48,408 bases of DNA from a virus, in the IMG/VR virus record IMGVR_UViG_3300046615_000032; one strand, 5' to 3'. Positions 10,408 to 41,688 of the stretch are shown piece by piece; position 1 is the stretch's first letter; every line of letters begins with the position of its first letter. Under the pieces are notes generated by a model. That model did not search any database. It saw only the letters and a list, made by a program, of their open reading frames with translations, and was not told the DNA's origin. Position numbers and translations under genes: made by a program.

Positions 10408-11625
10408 ATGAAGCTCCGCGACCTCACGGTCGAGGTGCGGGACAAGGCGCTCAACCGCGTCGGTGCCATCCGCCCCGAGGAGCTGGTGCTGGAACTGGAA
10501 GACCAGTTCAACAACGTCGGAACCTGGAAGCTCACACTGGCTGCCGAGCACCCGCTCACGCAGGCACTGCGGACTCCAGGTTCCGGCGTCATCATCACCG
10601 GCCCGACCGACGTGCTCATGTCCGGCCCGACCTCGAAGAACGAGTTCGCCTCGACACCCGAAGACCCAGGCGGGTCAGTGGTGTTCGAGGGGATCTCCGA
10701 CACCTGCATCTTGTCGGACATGCTGTCCTTCCCCGACCCGACCAACGTCAACCCGACCACGCAGACCCTCTCGCACGACGTCCGTACCGGGCCTGCCGAG
10801 ACCCTGCTCCACGCCTACGTCAACGCGAACATCGGACCGAGCGCACCGGCAGCTCGACGCAGGGCTGGGCTCATCATGGGCACCAACCTGGCGCGCGGCA
10901 CGGTGATGACGAAGTCCGCCCGCTTCCCGGTGCTGGGCAACCTGCTCACTGACATCGCCGTCGTGGACGGCCTTGGCTTCCGCATCGTGCAGCGCGGTGC
11001 GAACCTGGTCTTCGAGACCTACCAGATCACCGACCGGACGAAGACGATCCGGCTCGACGTCCTGAACAACACGCTGGCCGGTCAGCGCGTGGCCATCTCT
11101 CCCCCGTCCGCTACCCACGTCATCGTGGCCGGTCAGGGCGAGCAGGAGGACCGGACCTTCCGGGACGTCACGACTCCCGAGTCCCTTGCCGCTGAGGCGG
11201 ACTGGGGTCGACGCATCGAGGTGTTCCAGGACCAGCGAGATCAGGCGGAGGACGCCCAACTCGACCAGTCCGGGCTGGAGACGCTGGCCGAGAAGGGCTT
11301 CACTGCGGTCGCCGTACAGGCGGTCCCGATGGAGGACTCGGCCATGCAGTTCGGCGTCGACTGGGGCCTGGGCGACACCGTCTCGGTCGTGGTCAACGAC
11401 CAGGAGCTCAGCTCCACCGTCACCGGCATGATCCTGAAGGCCACCTCCGATGGCTTCAAGATCGGCGTCGAGCTCGGTGACGCAACCGGCTTCAACGCCG
11501 AGGCTGCCTACGCGCAGCGAGTCCAGGACACGGAGAACCGTGTGAGCAAGCTCGAACGCAACAGTTCGGGTGGCGGCGGCGTCTCTACCGATGACCAGAT
11601 CATGAACATCATGGGGGTGTGGTAA
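10408..11625 (+). CDS. Minor tail protein (Siphovirus Gp37-like / tail-associated)
   Basis: Second ORF after the tape measure gene, 405 aa. The N-terminus MKLRDLTVEVRD... recalls Gp37-like tail proteins; this is from memory, not searched. Confidence 0.6.
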   Translation: MKLRDLTVEVRDKALNRVGAIRPEELVLELEDQFNNVGTWKLTLAAEHPLTQALRTPGSGVIITGPTDVLMSGPTSKNEFASTPEDPGGSVVFEGISDTCILSDMLSFPDPTNVNPTTQTLSHDVRTGPAETLLHAYVNANIGPSAPAARRRAGLIMGTNLARGTVMTKSARFPVLGNLLTDIAVVDGLGFRIVQRGANLVFETYQITDRTKTIRLDVLNNTLAGQRVAISPPSATHVIVAGQGEQEDRTFRDVTTPESLAAEADWGRRIEVFQDQRDQAEDAQLDQSGLETLAEKGFTAVAVQAVPMEDSAMQFGVDWGLGDTVSVVVNDQELSSTVTGMILKATSDGFKIGVELGDATGFNAEAAYAQRVQDTENRVSKLERNSSGGGGVSTDDQIMNIMGVW

Positions 11626-11628
11626 CGA

Positions 11629-11931
11629 GTGGCGAACACGCCGACATGCCTCTACCGAGGTAACACGACGACCAGCTTGGCGACGGTCTACACCGTGCCG
11701 ACGAAGACCAAGACCATCGTCACCAACATCGTGGTGACCAACAGCGGCACGACCGCTGCGACCGTCCTGCTCCAGATCGGCGGCTACGCCATCGTCCCGA
11801 ACACCCCCGTCCCGGCGAACGGCATCTTCACCCTCGACGTCACGCAGGTGATCGAGGAGACGAACACCGTCAAGGTGCAGGCAAGTTCGACCACATGCGC
11901 AGTGCACGTCTCAGGAGTGGAGGTGGCCTGA
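11629..11931 (+). CDS. Small tail-module protein
   Basis: 100 aa, Thr/Val-rich, stop overlaps the start of the fibre gene. Confidence 0.6.
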
Positions 11932-13595
11932 TGGGCTTCAGCGTCATCCCCGCTCCCGAGGTCTCCGGCCTCACTGGAGCTCCAGGGCCATCCGGCCTGA
12001 ACGGGTCCAACGGCAACGTGATCCTGTCCGGCACCACGGCACCAACTGCCGCGCAGGGCAACGACGGTGACGTCTACATCCAGGACGACAGCCGGACCTT
12101 CCTCGGTGTGACGAGCACCAACCTCACGGTCTACCGCAAGGTGTCCGGCGCATGGACTCAGGTCGGTGCCTCGCCGGTCGGTGGATCGAAGTGGTACCTG
12201 AACACCACCTCGACGTCGAGCACCGACACTAAGCCCGGCGACATGCTGCTCCGCACCGACACGGGCGACATCTGGCAGCGCAGTGCCTCTGGTTGGGGCA
12301 ACCCGATCGGCAACCTGAAGGGACCGAAGGGCGACACCGGGGCGACTGGCGCTACCGGTGCGACTGGTCCCGCTGGGCCGACAGGCGCGACCGGGGCTAC
12401 CGGCCCGACTGGTCCGACTGGCCCCCAGGGTCCGGCTGGTCCGGCTGGCGGCGTCACCTCGGTGAACACCAAGACCGGTGCCGTCTCCCTGTCGGCTGCC
12501 GACGTCAACGCCCTGCCCACCACGGGCGGCACGCTCAGCGGCGAGCTCAGCGTGGACGGTGCGGCTGCCACGTACCGCGAGTTCTCGTTCAAGACGGGCG
12601 GCGCGAAGCGTTGGTCGATCCAGGCGGAGAACAGCTCCGAGGCTGCCGGTGACGGCACGGGCTCCGACTTCCGGATCTTCTCCCGGAACAACGACGGCAC
12701 CTTCAACCTGACCGGCATGTCGATCACCCGCAAGTGGGCGCAGACCGCCTTCGGCGACGGCAAGCCCCTGGGCGACGCGAAGGCCACGACCATCGGGGCG
12801 CACGGCCTGCGAGACATGACCTGGGAGCCCGCCCTCCCCAACGAGGGCGTCCTGCTCTACTCGCGGGGCGGCTTGCCCTACATCAAGCAGGGCAACGGGA
12901 CGGTCTTCCAGGTGACGCCTGCGGGTGTTGGTCCCCAGGGTCCGGCTGGCCCTACGGGTCCTGCTGGTCCGACTGGTCCGGCTGGACCGCAAGGCATCCA
13001 GGGTGCGACTGGCTCCACCGGTCCGCAGGGTCCGGCTGGTCCGTCTCTCCCGCAGTTCGAGCCTGCCGACCTGGGCCTGGCGGCGTGGGCGTTCGACCCG
13101 GCGCTGACCCTGTCGGACGGGCGACTGCCCGGCACCTCTGCCCGCGTCACGGCTGTGGTACTGAGGCAGACGACGACGATCTCGAAGGTAGCGTTCCACT
13201 TCACCAGCTACGCGGGCGGCATCACGACCGGCTCCTGGGCTGCGATCTACGACACTGCCGGGACGAGGAAGGCCACTACGGCTGACATCGTCGGCACGAC
13301 CCAGTTCCCCACCGTCTCAGCCGCTGGTGGCCAGACCGTCTCCGTGCCGCTGACCTCCTCGGTCTCGCTCACGCCCGGCATCTACTACATCGTCTGGCGC
13401 TTCCAGTACACGACGAACGGGCCGCTGCTCCTCCAGTTGGAGAACGCGGGCAACACGCCCCCGAACAACTTCGGCCTCACGGTCGTCCGGCGCTTCGGCG
13501 TCTACTCCTCTGGCCTGGGCACGACAGCACCGGCCAGCATCACCGTCTCCAGCATGGAGGTCGGGGCCAACCGCTACTGGGCGGGACTGGCGTAA
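11931..13595 (+). CDS. Collagen-like tail fibre protein
   Basis: ATG at 11931 with a GGAGTGGAGG SD. There are two Gly-X-Y blocks (12321-12449 and 12930-13046). Confidence 0.8.
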
Positions 13596-22444: not shown

Positions 22445-22518
22445 CCGAGTGTGTTACTGTGTACGAAGACGGAGCAGGGGGCCGCAAGGTCCCCTCTCCT
22501 CGAAGGGAGTGTGAGAGT

Positions 22519-22884
22519 GTGAGCAACCCCGTCAGAAACAAGAAGAAGGGGGCCGAGTGGGAGAACGAGCTGAAGAACAAGTTCCGTGCCACCGGCTTCG
22601 ACATCGAGCACCTGCACCTGAACGGCAGTGAGGACGAGGGTGACCTGGTCATCCGGTCCTGGAACGGCAAGACCTGGGTCATCGAGGCGAAGAACGCGAA
22701 GATGGACCCCAACCAGTTCGTCAAGGAGATGGAGGCCGAGGTCGGCCACTACGCCTCCCATCGGGGACTGGACCCCGAGCTGGTCGACGGCGTCGTGATC
22801 GTGAAGGCGTACCGCAAGCCCTGGCGCAAGGCGTACGTGATCACCACGGTGGAGCGGTTCTTCGGTCTGGACGATGCCGCATGA
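22519..22884 (+). CDS. PD-(D/E)XK nuclease, Holliday-junction-resolvase-like
   Basis: GAEWENEL ... GSEDEGDL ... VIEAKN motifs. GTG after a GGGAG SD. Confidence 0.6.
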   Translation: MSNPVRNKKKGAEWENELKNKFRATGFDIEHLHLNGSEDEGDLVIRSWNGKTWVIEAKNAKMDPNQFVKEMEAEVGHYASHRGLDPELVDGVVIVKAYRKPWRKAYVITTVERFFGLDDAA

Positions 22885-35861: not shown

Positions 35862-36328
35862 CAGGCAGCCACCGGCTGCTCGACCTCGGGCTCCCAGAGG
35901 GGGCGGCGGCTGGTGAAGACCAGCTCCAGGTGGTCAACGAACACGCACAGCCGCTCGCCGCAGGTCGGGCGGATCAGGCCACCCTCGGGGACGTTGCGAC
36001 CGTCCAGCTCCCATGCGACTCGCGCGGCGGACTTGTTCGTGCCCTTGTGGTGCGCCTGCGGGGTGCCGGACCGCATGGTCGACCCCTCCCAGAACCAGTG
36101 CTTGTCGGTCGCCCGGATGCGGTTGTAGAACTTGTCCTCGTCGGTCGTGCCCGAGATCTGCGGACGCTCGACCGGCTCGATCGGCTTGGTGTACTTGCGG
36201 ATCGGGCGGTCAGCCTGGACGTCGCCGTGTCGGGCGATCCGACCCAGGTGGGTGGCGCAGATCGAGGCGAGTCCTCGCGTCTCGTTCTTGCACTGCCCGA
36301 TCTTCGTGCTGGTCACGCTGCACCTCAC
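35861..36328 (-). CDS. HNH endonuclease (HNH_3-like)
   Basis: GTG at 36328 after a GAGAGAGGAG SD. KHWFWEG...HHKGTNKSAARVAWEL pattern. The track N-terminus is read-through of the tRNA-like element. Confidence 0.7.
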   Translation of the reverse strand: MRCSVTSTKIGQCKNETRGLASICATHLGRIARHGDVQADRPIRKYTKPIEPVERPQISGTTDEDKFYNRIRATDKHWFWEGSTMRSGTPQAHHKGTNKSAARVAWELDGRNVPEGGLIRPTCGERLCVFVDHLELVFTSRRPLWEPEVEQPVAA

Positions 36329-36377
36329 TGGGTGCTCCTCTCTCGCAGGACGCCCGCCCCCTTGGCGGTGTCCGAGC

Positions 36378-36417
36378 GCGTGCCGGGGGCTCGAACCCCG
36401 GTGCCTGCCAGTCACGC
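36378..36417 (-). ncRNA. tRNA-like minihelix A
   Basis: Minus sense: GCGTG ACTGGCAGGCA CCGGGG TTCGAGC CCCCGG CACGC. Confidence 0.7.
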
Positions 36418-36432
36418 TGGTGGATCACACAG

Positions 36433-36654
36433 TCACACCGCGATGAGATCCCGAGCGAAGTCGGTGACCTCGCCGTCCTCCGTCAGGTACCCGGCCTCGA
36501 TCATGTCGCGGGCGGTCCGTCCGTAGTGGCCCTGGAGAGTCCAGGCCATGCCGCTCTTGACCAGGGTGCCGAACAACTCCAGCGTCTCCGCGTCGTCCAG
36601 CTCACCCGACTCGTAGCTGATGATGTCGATGACCAGGCTGCCCATCTTGCTCAC
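36433..36654 (-). CDS. Hypothetical protein
   Basis: 73 aa, GAGAGGGAG SD. Confidence 0.7.
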   Translation of the reverse strand: MSKMGSLVIDIISYESGELDDAETLELFGTLVKSGMAWTLQGHYGRTARDMIEAGYLTEDGEVTDFARDLIAV

Positions 36655-36721
36655 TGTGTGCTCCCTCTCGGTTGGTGTGTGCTCACACTCTCACACGCTG
36701 TGCGAGTGTGTCAAGGTTGGA

Positions 36722-37003
36722 TCAGGCGGCGTCTTCCTCCGCCTCAGCGCGGCCATCCTCCAGGCCCTCGTCGTACCCGTCGCTGTGGCCCTCGTCGTAG
36801 CCGTCCGAGCGACCGCTGTCGTAGCCCTCGGAGTAGGCGAAGTCCTCGCCCTCCGAGTACCCGTCCGTGTGACCGTCGTCGTAGGCGTCCGACCGCTCGT
36901 TCTCGACCAGGCTGTGGATGATGGCCTTCGCCTCCTCGGGCAGCTCCTCCAGGTCCAGGACCAGGGCGAGCTCGGCGATGGCGTCGGTGGTGTAGATGCT
37001 CAC
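36722..37003 (-). CDS. Highly acidic repeat protein ((S/H)DGY(D/S)EG repeats)
   Basis: 93 aa, about one third Asp/Glu by manual count. GAGAGGAGCACC SD. Confidence 0.7.
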   Translation of the reverse strand: MSIYTTDAIAELALVLDLEELPEEAKAIIHSLVENERSDAYDDGHTDGYSEGEDFAYSEGYDSGRSDGYDEGHSDGYDEGLEDGRAEAEEDAA

Positions 37004-37055
37004 GGTGTGGTGCTCCTCTCGCAGTGGGTCGGCGCTGTCACCGTCGACCCTGAGT

Positions 37056-37095
37056 GCCTGCCTGGGGCTCGAACCCAGGTGCCTGCCGGTCAGGC
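37056..37095 (-). ncRNA. tRNA-like minihelix B
   Basis: Minus sense: GCCTG ACCGGCAGGCA CCTGGG TTCGAGC CCCAGG CAGGC. Confidence 0.7.
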
Positions 37096-37105
37096 TGTCC
37101 CTCGA

Positions 37106-37315
37106 TCAGAGGGGGTACCGCTCCAGGTTGTGCTTCCGGGCGATGTCGTCGGCCTCGTCGGTCTCGGCCCGCAGGTAGGCGGCGGCGTTGACCGCTCCCA
37201 CCCCATCGGCGAAGACCTCCCAGGCGTTGGCGACGTCGCCCCCCAGCTCATGCGCTCGGAGGACTACCCGTGCCGCTGCCTCGGGGTTCCGAGCGGCGAT
37301 CTCTGCGTGATCCAC
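37106..37315 (-). CDS. Hypothetical protein (69 aa)
   Basis: GTG at 37315 after a GAGAGGAGAG SD. Confidence 0.55.
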   Translation of the reverse strand: MDHAEIAARNPEAAARVVLRAHELGGDVANAWEVFADGVGAVNAAAYLRAETDEADDIARKHNLERYPL

Positions 37316-37329
37316 TGTGCTCTCCTCTC

Positions 37330-37683
37330 CTACTTCAGGATCTTGGTGTCGAACCCGTAGCCCTGCACTGTCCCATCGGCGAAGTGTACGAACGCCTCGG
37401 GCTCGTCGCTGTGCATCCAGCGGAAGTTGAAGTCGTAGTCGGAGATCGGCGTGCCGTAGATGCTCGGCACCTTCTCCCCCTTGTCCCCGTCCCAGCACTC
37501 CGACCAGCGGTACCCGCAGCAGTCGCAGTCCCCCTGTCCGTCGAAGTACAGGCCGATCCTCTCGGCCTTGTCGTTGGCCTCCTCCGGGGAGTCAGCCTCG
37601 ATGATCACGTAGTGGCTGATGCCAGCCGGGTCGAAGGTGAACCCACCACCCGAGTTGTTCTGGCTGTACTCGAAGAACGCCAC
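37330..37683 (-). CDS. Hypothetical protein (CDCCGYRW motif)
   Basis: GTG at 37683 after a GAGAGGGG SD, 117 aa. Confidence 0.7.
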   Translation of the reverse strand: MAFFEYSQNNSGGGFTFDPAGISHYVIIEADSPEEANDKAERIGLYFDGQGDCDCCGYRWSECWDGDKGEKVPSIYGTPISDYDFNFRWMHSDEPEAFVHFADGTVQGYGFDTKILK

Positions 37684-37732
37684 GCCATGCCCCTCTCGCC
37701 TTGGGTCTGCGCTGTCACCGCATCCCCTGAGT

Positions 37733-37772
37733 GGGAGCCGAGGACTCGAACCTCGGTGTCTGCCGGTCTCCC
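37733..37772 (-). ncRNA. tRNA-like minihelix C
   Basis: Minus sense: GGGAG ACCGGCAGACA CCGAGG TTCGAGT CCTCGG CTCCC. Confidence 0.7.
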
Positions 37773-37793
37773 TGCCTACCTCCTGCCCCCCGA

Positions 37794-38240
37794 TCAGGAG
37801 GTCGTCTTGTACCCGTCCCAGCACTGGACGTAGGACGTGTCGCCGATCTTGGCCCAGCAGTCACGGTGTCCGTCGACCGTGTGCCAGTTCTCCTTGCCCG
37901 CCTTGCGCTGGGCGTTGTCCCAGGCGAGCTGCTTCTCCTTGTCGCGCAGCTTGGCGTCCAGGTAGATCACTCGACCCTGCTTGTCCACCCAGAACGAGTA
38001 GCCCTTGCCGTTCCCGCGCTTGCCAGCATCCCAGAAGCAGTCGTTGTCGTCCTCGTACCCGCACGCCTTCTTCGGGAGCCGGGAGGTGGGCACCTCCACG
38101 ATGATCGGCTTGGTCACGACCACCCGGATCACCTTGGGCGGCTGCGGTGCAGCCTCGGCGTGCACTCCACCGAGCGTGATGCCTCCGACCGCCACGCCGA
38201 TCGCGAGGGTGGCCAGGGTGCGCTTGATCGTCTTGAACAT
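37794..38240 (-). CDS. Secreted Cys-containing protein
   Basis: Signal-peptide-like N-terminus MFKTIKRTLATLAIGVAVGG...VHAEAA. GAAGGAGA SD. Confidence 0.7.
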   Translation of the reverse strand: MFKTIKRTLATLAIGVAVGGITLGGVHAEAAPQPPKVIRVVVTKPIIVEVPTSRLPKKACGYEDDNDCFWDAGKRGNGKGYSFWVDKQGRVIYLDAKLRDKEKQLAWDNAQRKAGKENWHTVDGHRDCWAKIGDTSYVQCWDGYKTTS

Positions 38241-38275
38241 GGGATCTCCTTCGTGAGTCAGCGGTGTTGCTGAGT

Positions 38276-38315
38276 GGGTGCCGAGGGCTCGAACCTCGGT
38301 GCCTGCCGGTCACCC
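38276..38315 (-). ncRNA. tRNA-like minihelix D
   Basis: Minus sense: GGGTG ACCGGCAGGCA CCGAGG TTCGAGC CCTCGG CACCC. Confidence 0.7.
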
Positions 38316-38321
38316 TCGGGG

Positions 38322-38750
38322 TCACTCCCCCGCGTTGTCCTCGATGTCCTGGAGCAGCTTGCTGACCAGCCGGTAGGCGATCAGGTACAGCGCCCAGCCA
38401 GCCTGCGTGTCCAGGTCGGCGAACTCGCTGGTGTCGGCGATCTCGCTCACGTCCTCGGTCCAGGCACCCAGGTCGGTGAAGGTCAGCCACTTGTCGTAGG
38501 TGTAGATCGGGACCGCACCGTCTGCGATCTCCCCGTCAGCCCCCTCGTAGCGGACGTTCTCGACCGCCTCGGCCAGGCTGAACTCGCCGTGCTCGACGCG
38601 CCACTCGACCGCCTCGATCACACTGTCACGGATGCCTCGCAGGAAGCGGGCTCCCGCACTGTCCTCGTCGTCCGGGGTGCTCGACTCGGCGTCCACCGCC
38701 AGCTTCCAGTGGCTCAGGCCCTTGATCTCGCTCAGGATGTCGTCGCTCAT
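38322..38750 (-). CDS. Acidic hypothetical protein
   Basis: 142 aa, Asp/Glu-rich. Confidence 0.7.
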   Translation of the reverse strand: MSDDILSEIKGLSHWKLAVDAESSTPDDEDSAGARFLRGIRDSVIEAVEWRVEHGEFSLAEAVENVRYEGADGEIADGAVPIYTYDKWLTFTDLGAWTEDVSEIADTSEFADLDTQAGWALYLIAYRLVSKLLQDIEDNAGE

Positions 38751-38792
38751 GGTGTACTCACTCTCACAGGTTGGGGTTGGATCAGGTTGAGT

Positions 38793-38832
38793 GGAAGCCA
38801 GGGGCTCGAACCCTGGGGCCTGCCGGTCTCCC
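38793..38832 (-). ncRNA. tRNA-like minihelix E
   Basis: Minus sense: GGGAG ACCGGCAGGCC CCAGGG TTCGAGC CCCTGG CTTCC. The closing stem has one G-U pair. Confidence 0.7.
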
Positions 38833-38872
38833 TTGCCGATGTGCTCACACTCTCACACTCTCGGCCCTCCCG

Positions 38873-39133
38873 TCAAGCGGGGTAGATGCCGAGGCACCAG
38901 CTCGTCACGGGCTCCAGGAAGACACCCGGCAGCCACTCGGGCTCGCTGCCCGCCTTCTCCGTGACCTCGAACACCCACTCGGGGTGACCCTCCAGGGCCA
39001 GGGACCAGGCACCCTCGCTCAGACCCTCATGGTCGTGGTCGGCCAGGAAGAAGTACCCAGCGTCGAGCGGGTACAGCTTCTCGATCTCAGCCTTGACGTG
39101 CTCGGCCTGCTTGCGGCTCAGCGCCTTGCTCAT
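38873..39133 (-). CDS. Hypothetical protein
   Basis: ATG at 39133 lies 5 nt after a GAGGAG SD. Confidence 0.65.
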   Translation of the reverse strand: MSKALSRKQAEHVKAEIEKLYPLDAGYFFLADHDHEGLSEGAWSLALEGHPEWVFEVTEKAGSEPEWLPGVFLEPVTSWCLGIYPA

Positions 39134-39166
39134 GATCACTCCTCGTTCAGGGCAGGGTTGCCCGGT

Positions 39167-39206
39167 GGGTGCCAGGGACTCGAACCCTGGTGTGTGCCAC
39201 TCACCC
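39167..39206 (-). ncRNA. tRNA-like minihelix F
   Basis: Minus sense: GGGTG AGTGGCACACA CCAGGG TTCGAGT CCCTGG CACCC. Confidence 0.7.
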
Positions 39207-39214
39207 TCACGGCG

Positions 39215-39622
39215 TCAGCCGTACCGTACTTCACCGAGCGCGGCCACCTGGACGATCACGTCCGCAGCAGTCGCGTCGATGTGCCCGCAGTCGATGCCGT
39301 CCTCGTCACGGTCCCGCCAGGAGTCCAGGATGTACCCAGCCACCATCGGGCCGACGTACTCCTGACTCGGGTCGAGCAGCTTGGCGTACGCCGCTCGGAT
39401 CTCGTCCTTGCTCAGGTAGTGGACCGCCTCGACCTCGCGGCCACCGAAGGGGAAGTCATCGACCCCCTCCACGATGGTGTACTCCTTGCCCTCGGGCAGG
39501 GCGGCGAACTCCTCCGCCGTGGGCTCGGTCGCCCAGTACGTGATCCCGCCGTACGACGCAGTGTCGATGATGTCCTGGACGTTCTCGTCCGTGATGCGGT
39601 TCAGGATGCGCTGCACGATCAT
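39215..39622 (-). CDS. Hypothetical protein
   Basis: 135 aa, good GC3. Confidence 0.7.
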   Translation of the reverse strand: MIVQRILNRITDENVQDIIDTASYGGITYWATEPTAEEFAALPEGKEYTIVEGVDDFPFGGREVEAVHYLSKDEIRAAYAKLLDPSQEYVGPMVAGYILDSWRDRDEDGIDCGHIDATAADVIVQVAALGEVRYG

Positions 39623-39624
39623 GC

Positions 39625-39765
39625 TCAGAACTCCTTGGCGACGTCGACCGACTCGGCCACGCCGTACTTGACGGACCGGGCGAACTTGCGCTGCTGAGCC
39701 AGAGCCTTGCCCTTGCGACGGTCGTCGCGGGTGGACTCACGGTTGTCGCGGAACTTGGGAACCAT
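39625..39765 (-). CDS. Small basic protein (46 aa)
   Basis: Below the ORF-track cutoff. GAGGAGAG SD, high GC3. Confidence 0.5.
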   Translation of the reverse strand: MVPKFRDNRESTRDDRRKGKALAQQRKFARSVKYGVAESVDVAKEF

Positions 39766-39816
39766 CTGGATCTCTCCTCGGATCAGAGCTCCCCTGCCAC
39801 TCAGGGGATGCCCAGT

Positions 39817-39856
39817 GCCTGCCCAGGACTCGAACCTGGGTGTCTGCCAGTCAGGC
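39817..39856 (-). ncRNA. tRNA-like minihelix G
   Basis: Minus sense: GCCTG ACTGGCAGACA CCCAGG TTCGAGT CCTGGG CAGGC. Confidence 0.7.
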
Positions 39857-39863
39857 TGTGCGG

Positions 39864-40520
39864 TCAGACCGCGATCGGGAGGGCGAGCTGGTCAGGGTGC
39901 TCACCCAGGAAGGCACGGAAGGCGTCGTACGCCTTGGCCTCGAAGTACTCGTCCCGCAGCTCGGCGTACAGCTCCTCGACTGCGTTCCAGCTCACGTCCG
40001 CCCCATCCCAGGGCAGCCGGTCCCCTGCGACCTCGTACAGCCGGTCACGGAGCTCCTGCGCCTCAGCGTCAGAGTCCAGGTCGTAGTCACGCTGCGCCTG
40101 GTCGATCGCCTCGCTCAGGTTCTCCTCGTAGAGCTTCCACTCACGCTCGGAGTAGTCGGACTCGTCCACGATCGGGTACGACTCCAGGCCCTCGCCGATC
40201 TCTACGATCGCCTTCCAGGCTGCGGTGAACGTCACCCCGTCGTCCTCGTACACTCGGACGAACAGTTGACGCAGCGACCCGACCAGCCAGTGACCGCACG
40301 TTGCGTCGATCACGTCGTCCTCGGACTCAGCCGCCCCCTGGACGATCTCCAGTGCGCTGAGGTAGTTCGACTCCTCCAGGATGTCGTCCCCACGCTCGGC
40401 CCAGGTCAGGGTCGACCCGTGCGTCTCGTACAGCCGCTCATCCCAGAACGCTGCGTCGCTCGGTCGGGTCAGAGCCTTCTCCGCCCACTCGGCCAGCGTC
40501 TCGATGTCGATCTCGTACAC
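39864..40520 (-). CDS. Acidic hypothetical protein (218 aa)
   Basis: Strongly Asp/Glu-rich. GTG after a GGGAG SD. Confidence 0.75.
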   Translation of the reverse strand: MYEIDIETLAEWAEKALTRPSDAAFWDERLYETHGSTLTWAERGDDILEESNYLSALEIVQGAAESEDDVIDATCGHWLVGSLRQLFVRVYEDDGVTFTAAWKAIVEIGEGLESYPIVDESDYSEREWKLYEENLSEAIDQAQRDYDLDSDAEAQELRDRLYEVAGDRLPWDGADVSWNAVEELYAELRDEYFEAKAYDAFRAFLGEHPDQLALPIAV

Positions 40521-40555
40521 AGTCCACTCCCACTGTCACAGCATGGTTGCTGAGT

Positions 40556-40595
40556 GCGCGCCTGGGACTCGAACCCAGGTGTCTGCCGGTCGCGC
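40556..40595 (-). ncRNA. tRNA-like minihelix H
   Basis: Minus sense: GCGCG ACCGGCAGACA CCTGGG TTCGAGT CCCAGG CGCGC. Confidence 0.7.
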
Positions 40596-40723
40596 TGTCT
40601 ACTACTCCCCCGGTGTCATGCAGGCTCTCGCCTGTGCACTTCCGGGTACCCGATCTCCTCGGGCTTCCGTTCCGTCTCGTCCCGTAACCACACACCACTC
40701 GGGTGGATCATCAGGACCCCCGA

Positions 40724-40864
40724 CTACTTCGAGGCTCGGTACGCCTGGATGGCGAGCTGACGACGCAGCGCGTCCAGGTCGTTCCGGCGCAGACGCTCGT
40801 TCCAGCGGGCCGCACGCTTGCTGCGGGCGATCGAGGAACGGGTCTTCTCCAGGGTCACGCTCAT
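40724..40864 (-). CDS. Small basic protein (46 aa)
   Basis: Below the ORF-track cutoff. GAGGAGA SD, high GC3. Confidence 0.5.
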   Translation of the reverse strand: MSVTLEKTRSSIARSKRAARWNERLRRNDLDALRRQLAIQAYRASK

Positions 40865-40911
40865 GTTGATCTCCTCAGATCTCTCTTGTCACAGGATCAC
40901 ACGATCCCAGT

Positions 40912-40951
40912 GGATGCCGGGGACTCGAACCCCGGTGTGTGCCACTCACCC
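40912..40951 (-). ncRNA. tRNA-like minihelix I
   Basis: Minus sense: GGGTG AGTGGCACACA CCGGGG TTCGAGT CCCCGG CATCC. The closing stem has one G-U pair. Confidence 0.7.
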
Positions 40952-40964
40952 TACACTCACACTG

Positions 40965-41342
40965 TCACACAGTCAAGCGCATGAAGACCACGTCAGGCTC
41001 ACCAGGCGTCCAGTTCGGGACGCGCTCGTACTCGGTGAAGCCGAACTGCTTGTAGTACTCAGGCAGGAAGCCATCGAAGCAGTCCAGGCGATCCGCACCG
41101 TGGTGCAGGATCGAGCTCCAGACCAGGTCGACACCCCGCCCCTTGATCAGGGAGAAGACTCCGACCAGGGTGCCGTCACCAGCCACGCCGTAGCCGGACT
41201 CCAGGTCGTCGGCGACGTAGTAGGCGTACGACGCGGGCATCTCCTCCGGAGTGGAGGTGGCAGCGGCGATGAGCTGGCTCTTGGAGCGCGCCCGTCGCAG
41301 TGCCTGAGTGTAGATGCCGTGACCGACTCGGAAGTAGATCAT
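40965..41342 (-). CDS. GNAT-family acetyltransferase-like protein
   Basis: 125 aa from the ATG at 41342. IKGRGVDLV and FLPEYYKQFGFTE GNAT-like motifs. It is the first gene of the punctuated array. Confidence 0.6.
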   Translation of the reverse strand: MIYFRVGHGIYTQALRRARSKSQLIAAATSTPEEMPASYAYYVADDLESGYGVAGDGTLVGVFSLIKGRGVDLVWSSILHHGADRLDCFDGFLPEYYKQFGFTEYERVPNWTPGEPDVVFMRLTV

Positions 41343-41391
41343 GTCCAACCCTCTCAGTTGCAACACTGTCACAGCCGGTGCTGTGACCAGT

Positions 41392-41432
41392 GAGTGCCCA
41401 GGGCTCGAACCTGGTGTGCCTGCCAGCCACTC
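41392..41432 (-). ncRNA. tRNA-like minihelix J
   Basis: Minus sense: GAGTG GCTGGCAGGCACA CCAGG TTCGAGC CCTGG G CACTC. Confidence 0.7.
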
Positions 41433-41594
41433 GCCCACCCCCTGGGGGGTGTCCAGACTCACAGTCTGGGAAGTCAGTTCCCACCCACAAACCATGCAGG
41501 CAGGTTCTTCGTCTGTGTCGCTTGCGCTCTGTTGAGTTCTCAAGGTGCGGTTCTTCGAGTCCGTGCTCGACCGCCCTTCGGGCGGGTCCTGCGC

Positions 41595-41688
41595 TTCGTT
41601 CTGGTCTCACTCTACCAGGTCTGTGTTGGTGTGTCAACCCGGTGTTTCTTGCTGTCCTGCGGTTCGTTCTGGTCTCACTCTACCAGGT
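41595..41688. repeat. Two exact 26-bp direct repeats, 68-bp period
   Basis: TTCGTTCTGGTCTCACTCTACCAGGT occurs at 41595-41620 and 41663-41688. A 12-nt partial third copy lies at 41904-41915. Confidence 0.9.

Follow-up and report, generated by a model that had tools for sequence, protein, structure and literature searches.

A repeated, tRNA acceptor/T-arm-like RNA element predicted between the early genes of an R4-like Streptomyces phage, with homologues in other phages and prophages

Elements of the transfer RNA (tRNA)-like processing type are mimics of the tRNA acceptor stem and T arm that lie within a longer transcript at an RNA boundary. In the mascRNA type, the upstream RNA receives its 3' end from RNase P cutting, and the small RNA is set free by RNase Z together with CCA addition. 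In the TMERs of the gammaherpesvirus MHV68, a viral tRNA-like structure is followed by hairpins, with RNase Z cutting between the two. The tRNA-like domain of transfer-messenger RNA (tmRNA), a substrate of RNase P, comprises an acceptor stem and a T arm, has a D-loop of reduced size, and lacks an anticodon arm. Bacterial RNase P takes a coaxial acceptor/T-type helix with an RCCA-like 3' tail, including in phage RNAs, and its non-tRNA substrates include the P1/P7 C4 antisense RNA, the 4.5S RNA precursor, and acceptor/T-arm model substrates. RNase P is reported to depend on RCCA (PMC12710915), and the t-elements of plant mitochondria were found by scanning for GGTTCRANYCC and have been linked to mRNA ends made by RNase P and RNase Z (PMC1920247). 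Analysis of a 48,408-nucleotide (nt) stretch of viral DNA (IMG/VR record IMGVR_UViG_3300046615_000032; the whole stretch is called the window below) revealed a ten-copy element of 40-41 nt between genes that resembles the acceptor/T-arm half of a tRNA, and its structure, distribution, and candidate roles are described here.

The ten elements occupied the minus strand between 36378 and 41432, all at the coordinates and on the strand given by an earlier, sequence-only reading of the window, and a covariance model built from them (R1) scored the ten copies at 59-74 bits. An R1 scan of the 48 kb window gave no further copy, cryptic or on the plus strand, the next best match reaching 14.6 bits. The motif GGTTCGAGYCC occurred exactly ten times in the window, every time on the minus strand, and the 23-nt degenerate pattern GGCASRCMYCNRGGTTCGAGYCC matched nine times compared to 0.03 expected by chance. 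Read along the minus strand, each element opens with an arm of 5 nt, continues through a linker of 11 nt into a stem of 6 bp, and turns at the loop TTCGAG(C/T); the complements of stem and arm follow in that order, and then a tail that starts with AC in nine of the ten copies and with GC in copy A. The arm, stem, and tail sequences, including those of the two copies with a G-U pair (E and I), agreed with the earlier reading, which had also given a T stem of 5-6 bp; the stem formed in all copies, but J aligned best as a 6-bp T stem plus one bulged A. From J to A, the copies were:

41390-41432, minus strand: element J, core 41392-41432 (41 nt) plus AC tail; 59 bits; one bulged A in the T stem
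40910-40951, minus strand: element I, core 40912-40951 plus AC tail; 67 bits; arm GGGTG:CATCC with a G-U pair
40554-40595, minus strand: element H, core 40556-40595 plus AC tail; 73.6 bits
39815-39856, minus strand: element G, core 39817-39856 plus AC tail; 70.4 bits
39165-39206, minus strand: element F, core 39167-39206 plus AC tail; 66.5 bits; linker variant AGTGGCACACA
38791-38832, minus strand: element E, core 38793-38832 plus AC tail; 67.1 bits; arm GGGAG:CTTCC with a G-U pair
38274-38315, minus strand: element D, core 38276-38315 plus AC tail; 71.9 bits
37731-37772, minus strand: element C, core 37733-37772 plus AC tail; 73.3 bits
37054-37095, minus strand: element B, core 37056-37095 plus AC tail; 72.5 bits
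36376-36417, minus strand: element A, core 36378-36417 plus GC tail; 71 bits

Element J sits in a 5' untranslated region with no open reading frame (ORF) directly upstream, and the gap at 36655-36721 carries no element, so the earlier description of one element per intergenic gap does not hold for every gap. The ten repeats are copies of a conserved cis-acting RNA element in the sense (leftward) transcript of a promoter-proximal early operon. An identity as a CRISPR array or as type III antitoxin repeats was rejected, as copies within a genome carry compensated stem changes and those in the window are 330-740 nt apart with genes in between.

Evidence for a conserved RNA fold came from covariation. 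All 110 of the 110 pair cells of both helices in the window copies were standard pairs, with five of the eleven pairs changing on both sides, and 116 distinct covariance-model matches had 99.9% of cells paired and eight of the eleven pairs changing on both sides. This homologue collection had been selected for pairing of both main helices, and a separate unbiased test was therefore run with a pattern that fixed only the linker, loop, and inner stem and left the arms and outer T stem free. All nine free pairs formed in 130 of 145 unique matches, compared to 6.4 after the 3' halves were shuffled among sequences, and these 130 matches comprised 26 different arms and 20 different outer stems. Acceptor sequences differed among copies with the shape kept. 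Minimum free energies of the ten copies with their flanks (z scores of -0.85 to +0.93 relative to shuffles) were uninformative in this 70% GC DNA, and the case for structure rests on covariation and not on stability because single copies folded no better than shuffled sequence. The selection on sense-strand RNA structure suggested by the earlier reading was supported, since the covariation persisted and grew with hundreds of homologues.

The same reading had named only a linker at this place; the linker is not a spacer and is itself structured, with a lone pair and pairing to the T loop. In 308 distinct cores, linker positions 2 and 8 formed CG (192), GC (61), AU (38), or UA (9) pairs, the lone 2:8 pair closing a pentaloop N-G-G-C-A in which the GG is invariant. 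Linker 9 paired with T-loop 7 as AU (186), GC (80), CG (20), or UA (6), and linker 10 (C) stood opposite T-loop 6 (G) in 300 of these cores; none of the three tertiary pairs had a role in choosing the sequences. The linker-loop rules were followed by ten of ten window copies, GGCAG-G occurring with TTCGAG-C and GGCAG-A or GGCAC-A with TTCGAG-T. A four-helix structure, written ....(((((.<.....>[[.((((((.....]])))))))))))....., was 98.7% paired on 150 diverse sequences, with 13 of 14 pairs changing on both sides; the pseudoknot is beyond Infernal models and its pairs were counted separately. Approximately 20 element positions hardly varied, among them A(-1) and, at the end of the helix, the R-C dinucleotide.

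The T arm fits GGTTCRANYCC (G53-T-T-C-R-A-N-Y-C61), is closed by the stem, and runs into the 3' acceptor strand; the element has no D arm and no anticodon arm, with 11 nt between the 5-bp arm and the T stem. This was consistent with the earlier proposal of a non-decoding structure whose T arm is continuous with a closing, acceptor-like arm. Judged by sequence conservation and covariation, the element is a compact pseudoknotted mimic of the tRNA acceptor, T arm, and elbow, and its linker looks like a one-pair D-loop whose GG resembles G18/G19, after which 2 bp to the T loop form a pseudoknot. A variant class with linker AACGGTTTTCG and loop TTCGATT was observed at loci L099 and L118 (Mycobacterium phages Riparian and Send513; for example L118 6338-6377 and 6724-6763, minus strand). 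It keeps both helices and the lone pair but has lost the linker-to-loop pairs, and may be a second structural subtype.

The strand that folds was indicated by two asymmetries. Copies with exactly one non-Watson-Crick pair carried G·U in 44 cases and A·C in 5, and, with the coding strand of the flanks called from codon-position GC, 212 copies were sense to both flanking genes and 1 was antisense to both. These ratios indicate that the sense-strand RNA folds and argue against duplex DNA or the opposite strand, because either would give G·U/A·C symmetry. The sequence-only reading had named homologues found equally in both orientations as one outcome that would refute it, and orientation proved to be strictly with transcription.

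A decoding tRNA gene was rejected since the cloverleaf is missing, the Rfam tRNA model gave no match, and ARAGORN called no tRNA gene (as had been anticipated) and no tmRNA in the window. No Rfam 15 family reached its gathering score anywhere in the window, by which a known small ribozyme or riboswitch was also rejected. A permissive Rfam search (E up to 10, 36300-41500) returned only sub-threshold mascRNA and two chance matches, the sole Rfam resemblance being to mascRNA-menRNA (RF01684) at 19-21 bits compared to a gathering score of 42.5. For homologues in other genomes, real tRNAs were rejected as the source of single-copy viral-contig matches, where ARAGORN found no tRNA and R1 matched over the full length, and as the source of the bacterial-genome matches except for two true tRNA-Leu pattern matches. 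The deposited tRNA-Arg of phage Endor2 (L001, MT711979; 2015-2097, minus strand) is an ARAGORN false positive on one element and overlaps the preceding coding sequence, and Sitrop (MT701598) also carries a listed tRNA-Arg under a homologous match. Apart from this false call, nothing was annotated at the elements in the deposited records of Send513, Endor2, and phiScoe56. Full-text literature searching, with subscription literature outside its coverage, found no description of the element, and there is a small chance that it has already been noted somewhere.

The window phage is assigned by sequence similarity to the R4-like Streptomyces phages (Arquatrovirinae/Camvirus), which correspond to cluster BD (PMC10276819), and was ~80% identical to phiCAM, Verse, Amela, the phiScoe phages, Endor1/2, and Joe. 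The homologous stretch of phiScoe56 is the promoter-proximal 5 kb of a leftward operon at the right end of the genome, leading from an acetyltransferase gene to one for an HNH endonuclease by way of a gene for an Ocr-like anti-restriction protein; that 5 kb holds eight elements, and the rest of the 20 kb examined holds none. Collection scans of viral contigs and bacterial genomes used exact patterns, such that their counts are lower bounds, and identified at least 116 stretches in viral contigs and at least 77 among one genome per bacterial species; R1 gave 280 matches on the first 80 viral loci, among them Mycobacterium cluster R phages (Send513 and Papyrus), a relative of the Actinoplanes phage phiAsp2, and unplaced actinophages. 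Up to about a dozen copies were present per double-stranded DNA (dsDNA) phage genome. Among the matches listed from these exact-pattern scans, the element was apparently absent from Proteobacteria and Firmicutes.

Homologues reached past the actinophages into prophages of the Gemmatimonadota and Bacteroidota, a spread that the earlier reading had not noticed. Full-length copies confirmed by R1 were identified in Actinomycetota (Kribbella, Streptomyces, Amycolatopsis, Tsukamurella, Gordonia, and others), in Gemmatimonadota, and in many Bacteroidota. The Bacteroidota element has the arm UCCCG:CGGGA and the tail AC-AAA and lies 7-45 nt before the start codons of early genes of Mu-like prophages, coding for a DDE transposase, an AAA protein, GemA, and Bro-N. 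These copies had no ORF immediately upstream and no expression platform was seen; the conserved TAGTGATTT stretch just upstream of them fits the consensus of a Bacteroidetes-type promoter poorly.

Gene-less tandem arrays with elements 65-96 nt apart were identified in some actinophages and prophages (L035, minus strand with the array at reverse-complement 11354-12728; L003 = L172; L029, L176, L005, L062, L071, L106, and L141). The spacers of these arrays are tracts of GGCNN pentamers of up to 15 units, on the same strand as the elements, with successive GGC distances of 5, 10, and 15 nt (76, 35, and 5 cases, respectively); no such tracts were found in the window. One idea, by analogy with the 5-nt register of TRAP, is that the tracts may be bound by a ring-shaped RNA-binding protein.

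The elements were phased with the upstream stop codon. Of 398 non-redundant copies, 212 had a stop triplet beginning 9 nt (51 copies), 10 nt (100 copies), or 11 nt (61 copies) before the arm, compared to a background of ~3% per other position; the stop thus ended 6-8 nt before the arm in 53% of copies, with all three spacings common. TGA, TAG, and TAA were all in use, and the phased stops are real gene ends because codon periodicity precedes them. The earlier reading had placed a stop codon about 10-30 nt upstream, and while a nearby stop was confirmed, its distance was 6-40 nt in the window and 6-8 nt in about half of the family. The following stop-to-arm spacers were obtained, the first three rows from deposited annotation with one or two longer spacers per phage omitted:

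Send513: 8, 8, 8, 8, 8, 9, 9, 13, and 15 nt
Endor2: 6, 7, 7, 8, 8, and 15 nt
phiScoe56: 6, 7, 7, 9, 12, 13, and 15 nt
Window, copies I to A: 13, 20, 7, 8, 40, 6, 21, 10, and 15 nt

On the other side, the next start codon lies 33-52 nt past the element. The elements are thus intergenic and sense, an acceptor/T-arm mimic within a longer transcript at an RNA boundary. Family-wide, the 32 nt downstream of the element had a median folding energy of -10.5 kcal/mol compared to -7.5 kcal/mol in ORF controls (p about 8e-16), with pairing starting 0-4 nt after the conserved C, and the upstream flank was no more structured than ORF controls. Element and hairpin together occupy most of a 90-110-nt gap, and in the window nine of the ten copies have a hairpin directly after the element. 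These hairpins, together with a promoter-like site, were located as follows:

41609-41637, minus strand: promoter-like site TTGACA-17-TAGAGT, consensus match 10/12, TG-extended, ~177 nt upstream of J
41369-41386, minus strand: hairpin after J, TCACAGC-ACCG-GCTGTGA
40893-40908, minus strand: hairpin after I
40538-40554, minus strand: hairpin after H
39786-39813, minus strand: hairpin after G, -18.6 kcal/mol
39150-39163, minus strand: hairpin after F
38258-38273, minus strand: hairpin after D
37703-37727, minus strand: hairpin after C, GTGACAG in the loop
37026-37050, minus strand: hairpin after B, GTGACAG in the loop
36345-36377, minus strand: hairpin after A, -18.5 kcal/mol

The promoter-like site would start the leftward, element-bearing transcript. 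Ten proteins of the element-bearing run were tested against Pfam, which identified DUF7296 (gene 37330-37683, minus strand; E = 1e-45) and one weak sub-threshold match; the remaining eight had no Pfam family and gave no functional clue.

The 3' trailer of the element was nearly uniform, with R in 390 of 394 copies followed by C in 391 of 394, the third base being T or G and C being rare (15/394); the base before the arm was A in ~70-75% of stop-phased copies. Real tRNA genes in the same loci (L134, L142, L162, L054, and others) had C74 in 11 of 13 and encoded the full CCA in 3, a small sample. The element tail R-C-(not C) therefore appears to be the same trailer as that of the CCA-less tRNA genes of these actinobacterial and Bacteroidota loci. 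In Gryllotalpicola koreensis (L122; 7043-7160, minus strand), an element, AC-T, and a genuine tRNA-His follow one another in the same orientation after a gene end, the element seeming to behave like one unit of a tRNA array.

Since a dedicated protein is unlikely to be common to unrelated phages of three phyla, the element is probably read by a universal host machine for the tRNA elbow and acceptor end. The elbow is the point from which RNase P, RNase Z, and the CCA-adding enzyme each measure along the stack of T arm and acceptor (PMC4919913). Our preferred, though tentative, explanation, to which we give a little less than even weight, is that the element mimics a pre-tRNA and brings in RNase P and/or RNase Z, by which the early polycistronic mRNA would be punctuated. 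The sequence context favours such processing through the R73-C74-like tail, the tandem arrangement with a real tRNA, and the hairpin right after the tail, and it favours mRNA end stabilisation too. Host enzymes recognising the tRNA elbow plus acceptor end would read the element, RNase P cutting at the 5' edge of the arm and RNase Z, or exonucleases together with the CCA-adding enzyme, acting at the R|C junction, which would split the polycistronic early mRNA between cistrons in a manner resembling tRNA punctuation. A cut at R|C alone would leave the upstream message ending a few nt past its stop and capped by a mini-tRNA, and the downstream message beginning with a near-terminal hairpin (0-4 nt after the conserved C). 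A cut at the 5' edge of the arm would give the downstream message a fully paired 5' end, the mini-tRNA itself, and both cuts may release a free 41-nt mini-tRNA. The preferred stop spacing equals the 6-8 nt of mRNA that lie within the ribosome entry channel beyond the A site, and may mean that the element stands as near to the stop codon as it can without being unwound by the terminating ribosome.

Several points weigh against processing by RNase P and RNase Z. The Rfam tRNA model does not match the elements even at E up to 10. The coaxial stack has 11 bp, one fewer than the 12 bp of tRNA unless the A(-1)·R mismatch is included; Escherichia coli RNase P prefers U(-1), and the element has A(-1). 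In tRNA, T-loop bases 59-60 do not form Watson-Crick pairs as they do here, such that a true tRNA elbow may not be presented, and if RNase P were the only enzyme to cut, the upstream cistron would finish in an unstructured 3' end. The gene-less tandem arrays call for an additional explanation, the tight stop-codon phasing could mean a translation-linked role instead, and every enzymatic step is a prediction from sequence.

A bolder and more doubtful possibility is that the elements belong to an unrecognised, cross-phylum phage RNA family in which a pseudoknot of 41 nt, placed at the edge of the terminating ribosome, reproduces the tRNA elbow and acceptor end. Its novel role might be a takeover of the tRNA-maturation machinery for mitochondrion-style tRNA punctuation of early mRNAs, combined with the release of mini-tRNA decoys that counter immunity aimed at tRNAs, or that of a new ribozyme or ribosome-interacting class, and in some actinophages the element would be combined with the GGCNN tracts into gene-less arrays processed to a second small RNA. 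We know of no bacterial RNA element that performs the role so proposed.

Unlikely, although it is the next best-surviving explanation, is a translation-coupled insulator, that is, a knot at the mRNA entry channel of the terminating ribosome that acts in cis and uncut, and that might alter termination or recycling, prevent ribosomes from scanning between cistrons, or hold the untranslated gap in a structure on which Rho or nucleases cannot load. It would account for the phasing of the three stop types 6-8 nt before the arm across phyla, a spacing that recoding pseudoknots use and that falls within the 5-9 nt expected between a recoded codon and its structure. The share of the gap taken up by element and hairpin and the restriction of elements to operons of separately translated small genes also fit. 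An insulator leaves the exact tRNA T-arm sequence, the GG loop, and the invariant R-C tail unexplained; no ORF lies just upstream of copy J or of the Bacteroidota copies, gene-less arrays exist, and the use of three spacings leaves no conserved read-through frame. A read-through or frameshift signal as the general function was rejected on that last ground, as the element follows the stop in all three frames with none conserved.

Rather improbable as the whole explanation is a decoy or sponge, in which the operon would yield many mimics of the tRNA top half early in infection and titrate a host binder of the elbow or acceptor end, candidates being defence toxins that modify or cut tRNA acceptor ends and a tRNA-modifying or CCA-adding enzyme. 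The multiple copies per genome in the immediate-early region beside anti-restriction genes (Ocr-like in relatives), the tandem arrays without genes between copies, and the conservation of shape over acceptor sequence are in line with titration, and the cross-phylum spread implies a universal tRNA-binding target. The best-known tRNA-targeting defences, however, cut the anticodon loop, and the element has no anticodon arm. A decoy alone also leaves the stop-codon phasing and the one-per-gap layout unexplained, and as it still needs processing it overlaps the processing model and does not replace it.

A new small self-cleaving ribozyme or ligand aptamer that merely uses a T-loop module is very unlikely. 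The compact pseudoknot has the size of pistol, twister, and small riboswitch aptamers, the near-invariant positions include A(-1) and the R-C at the helix end, and no known Rfam class matches; the element is phage-associated, multi-copy, and sense-oriented, as known small ribozymes likewise are. The conserved bases are those of the tRNA T arm and the D-loop GG, and the tail copies host pre-tRNA trailers, which points to mimicry; the Bacteroidota copies lack an expression platform, and one copy per gap would be unusual for a riboswitch.

The last alternative is a site at the DNA level, and a family of operator-like motifs bears on it. The published repressor-site/stoperator motif of R4-like phages is TGTGCAAGTGTNGC (PMC10276819), and the 16-nt motif TGTGAGAGTGTGAGCA, which resembles it and occurred in eight window copies compared to 0.74 expected, is probably the repressor-site family of this phage. 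Seven of the eight copies run with the local genes, and 46294 (plus strand) lies in an unannotated stretch. The 40-nt spacer between the upstream stop and element E contains the operator-like motif, and the element-less gap looks like a repressor-controlled internal promoter by its motif content:

36680-36695, minus strand: copy of TGTGAGAGTGTGAGCA
38842-38857, minus strand: copy of TGTGAGAGTGTGAGCA
22510-22525, plus strand: copy of TGTGAGAGTGTGAGCA
20214, 21083, and 46294, plus strand: weaker copies of TGTGAGAGTGTGAGCA
38753 and 40954, minus strand: weaker copies of TGTGAGAGTGTGAGCA
36655-36721, minus strand: element-less gap, TTGACA then operator-like motif (ccttgacacactcgcacagcgtgtgagagtgtgagcac)

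The heptamer GTGACAG was observed on the minus strand at 37035, 37712, 40533, 40962, and 41366, in the gaps of elements B, C, H, I, and J. It lies ~15-20 nt downstream of the element in four gaps, twice in the loop of the following hairpin, and at 40962 just upstream of element I within the operator-like motif. Window-wide it was mildly enriched (19 compared to 12 expected), and it may be a half operator site.

A stoperator identity of the element was rejected owing to its lack of similarity to TGTGCAAGTGTNGC, the presence of the separate motif TGTGAGAGTGTGAGCA, the RNA-type G·U excess, and the tertiary covariation. More generally, a DNA-level repeat, whether a stoperator-like protein site or a recombination boundary with pairing incidental to a palindrome, is largely refuted and barely credible: stoperators of the same phage group are also one per gap and orientation-biased (PMC10276819) and some homology breakpoints fall at elements (e.g. 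near 38250, 38800, 39200, 40550, and 40900), but the G·T to A·C ratio of 44 to 5 is strand-specific, two non-palindromic tertiary covariations are meaningless in duplex DNA, the operator motif of the group differs and has its separate counterpart in the window, many breakpoints lie away from elements, and a recombinase shared between Mu-like Bacteroidota prophages and actinophages is not to be expected. BLAST segment ends between the window and its relatives fell at some elements and equally at 37300, 38000, 35850, and 41250, and a role as cassette boundaries is weakly supported because breakpoints coincide with elements only partly.

If RNase P or RNase Z is recruited, a strategy resembling tRNA punctuation would serve to cut and stabilise the early messages of tailed dsDNA phages in at least three bacterial phyla. 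To our knowledge, tRNA punctuation has so far been known from organelles plus a few eukaryotic nuclear and viral RNAs, and we know of no smaller natural sequence that appears to rebuild the D-loop/T-loop corner. The pre-tRNA mimic would explain the separate expression of small accessory and anti-defence genes in long early operons, provide annotators with an early-operon marker, and remove false tRNA calls such as the Endor2 tRNA-Arg. Synthetic operons in Streptomyces, Mycobacterium, and Bacteroides would gain a processing or insulator part that is portable and very small. The fold also tests the minimal recognition needs of RNase P, RNase Z, and the CCA-adding enzyme. If the function differs, the stop phasing and cross-phylum conservation would point to a new class of regulatory RNA.

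Compared to described systems, the plant mitochondrial t-elements are closest in function, being likewise non-decoding, carrying the GGTTCRANYCC T arm, and lying in mRNA precursors beside coding regions; their ends coincide with mRNA 5' or 3' termini and free t-element RNA can accumulate (PMC1920247). They differ in being degenerate cloverleaves that descend from tRNA genes and occur in organelles in small numbers per genome, whereas the phage element is a 41-nt fold with a pseudoknotted linker that is multi-copy, cross-phylum, and stop-phased, and for which cleavage is a prediction. Next in function are mascRNA and the MEN-beta RNA (MALAT1, NEAT1; RF01684), which share a tRNA-like module inside a longer transcript but have a full cloverleaf of ~60 nt in vertebrate nuclei and no homology to the element. 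The tRNA-like domain of tmRNA is closest in architecture but has a 7-bp acceptor ending in CCA, is aminoacylated, and is encoded by one gene per genome joined to an mRNA-like domain. The layout of the TMERs is analogous to the element and hairpin described here, but these are RNA polymerase III units of a eukaryotic virus with a full cloverleaf and with hairpins that are microRNA precursors. The non-tRNA substrates of RNase P are single sites; a family that recurs between genes and has a pseudoknot forming an elbow is not among them. Stoperators of cluster A mycobacteriophages and R4-like phages are similar in being many per genome, intergenic, in the same operons, and oriented with transcription (PMC10276819), but are asymmetric repressor DNA sites of 13-16 bp with no pairing constraint. 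By the sequence comparisons made here, the element belongs to none of t-elements, mascRNA, and tmRNA, as it fails tRNA finders, scores 21 compared to 42.5 bits on the mascRNA model, and has a smaller fold. In kind it would be a tRNA-like processing or mimic element, and it would be categorically new should a new mechanism underlie the stop-codon phasing.

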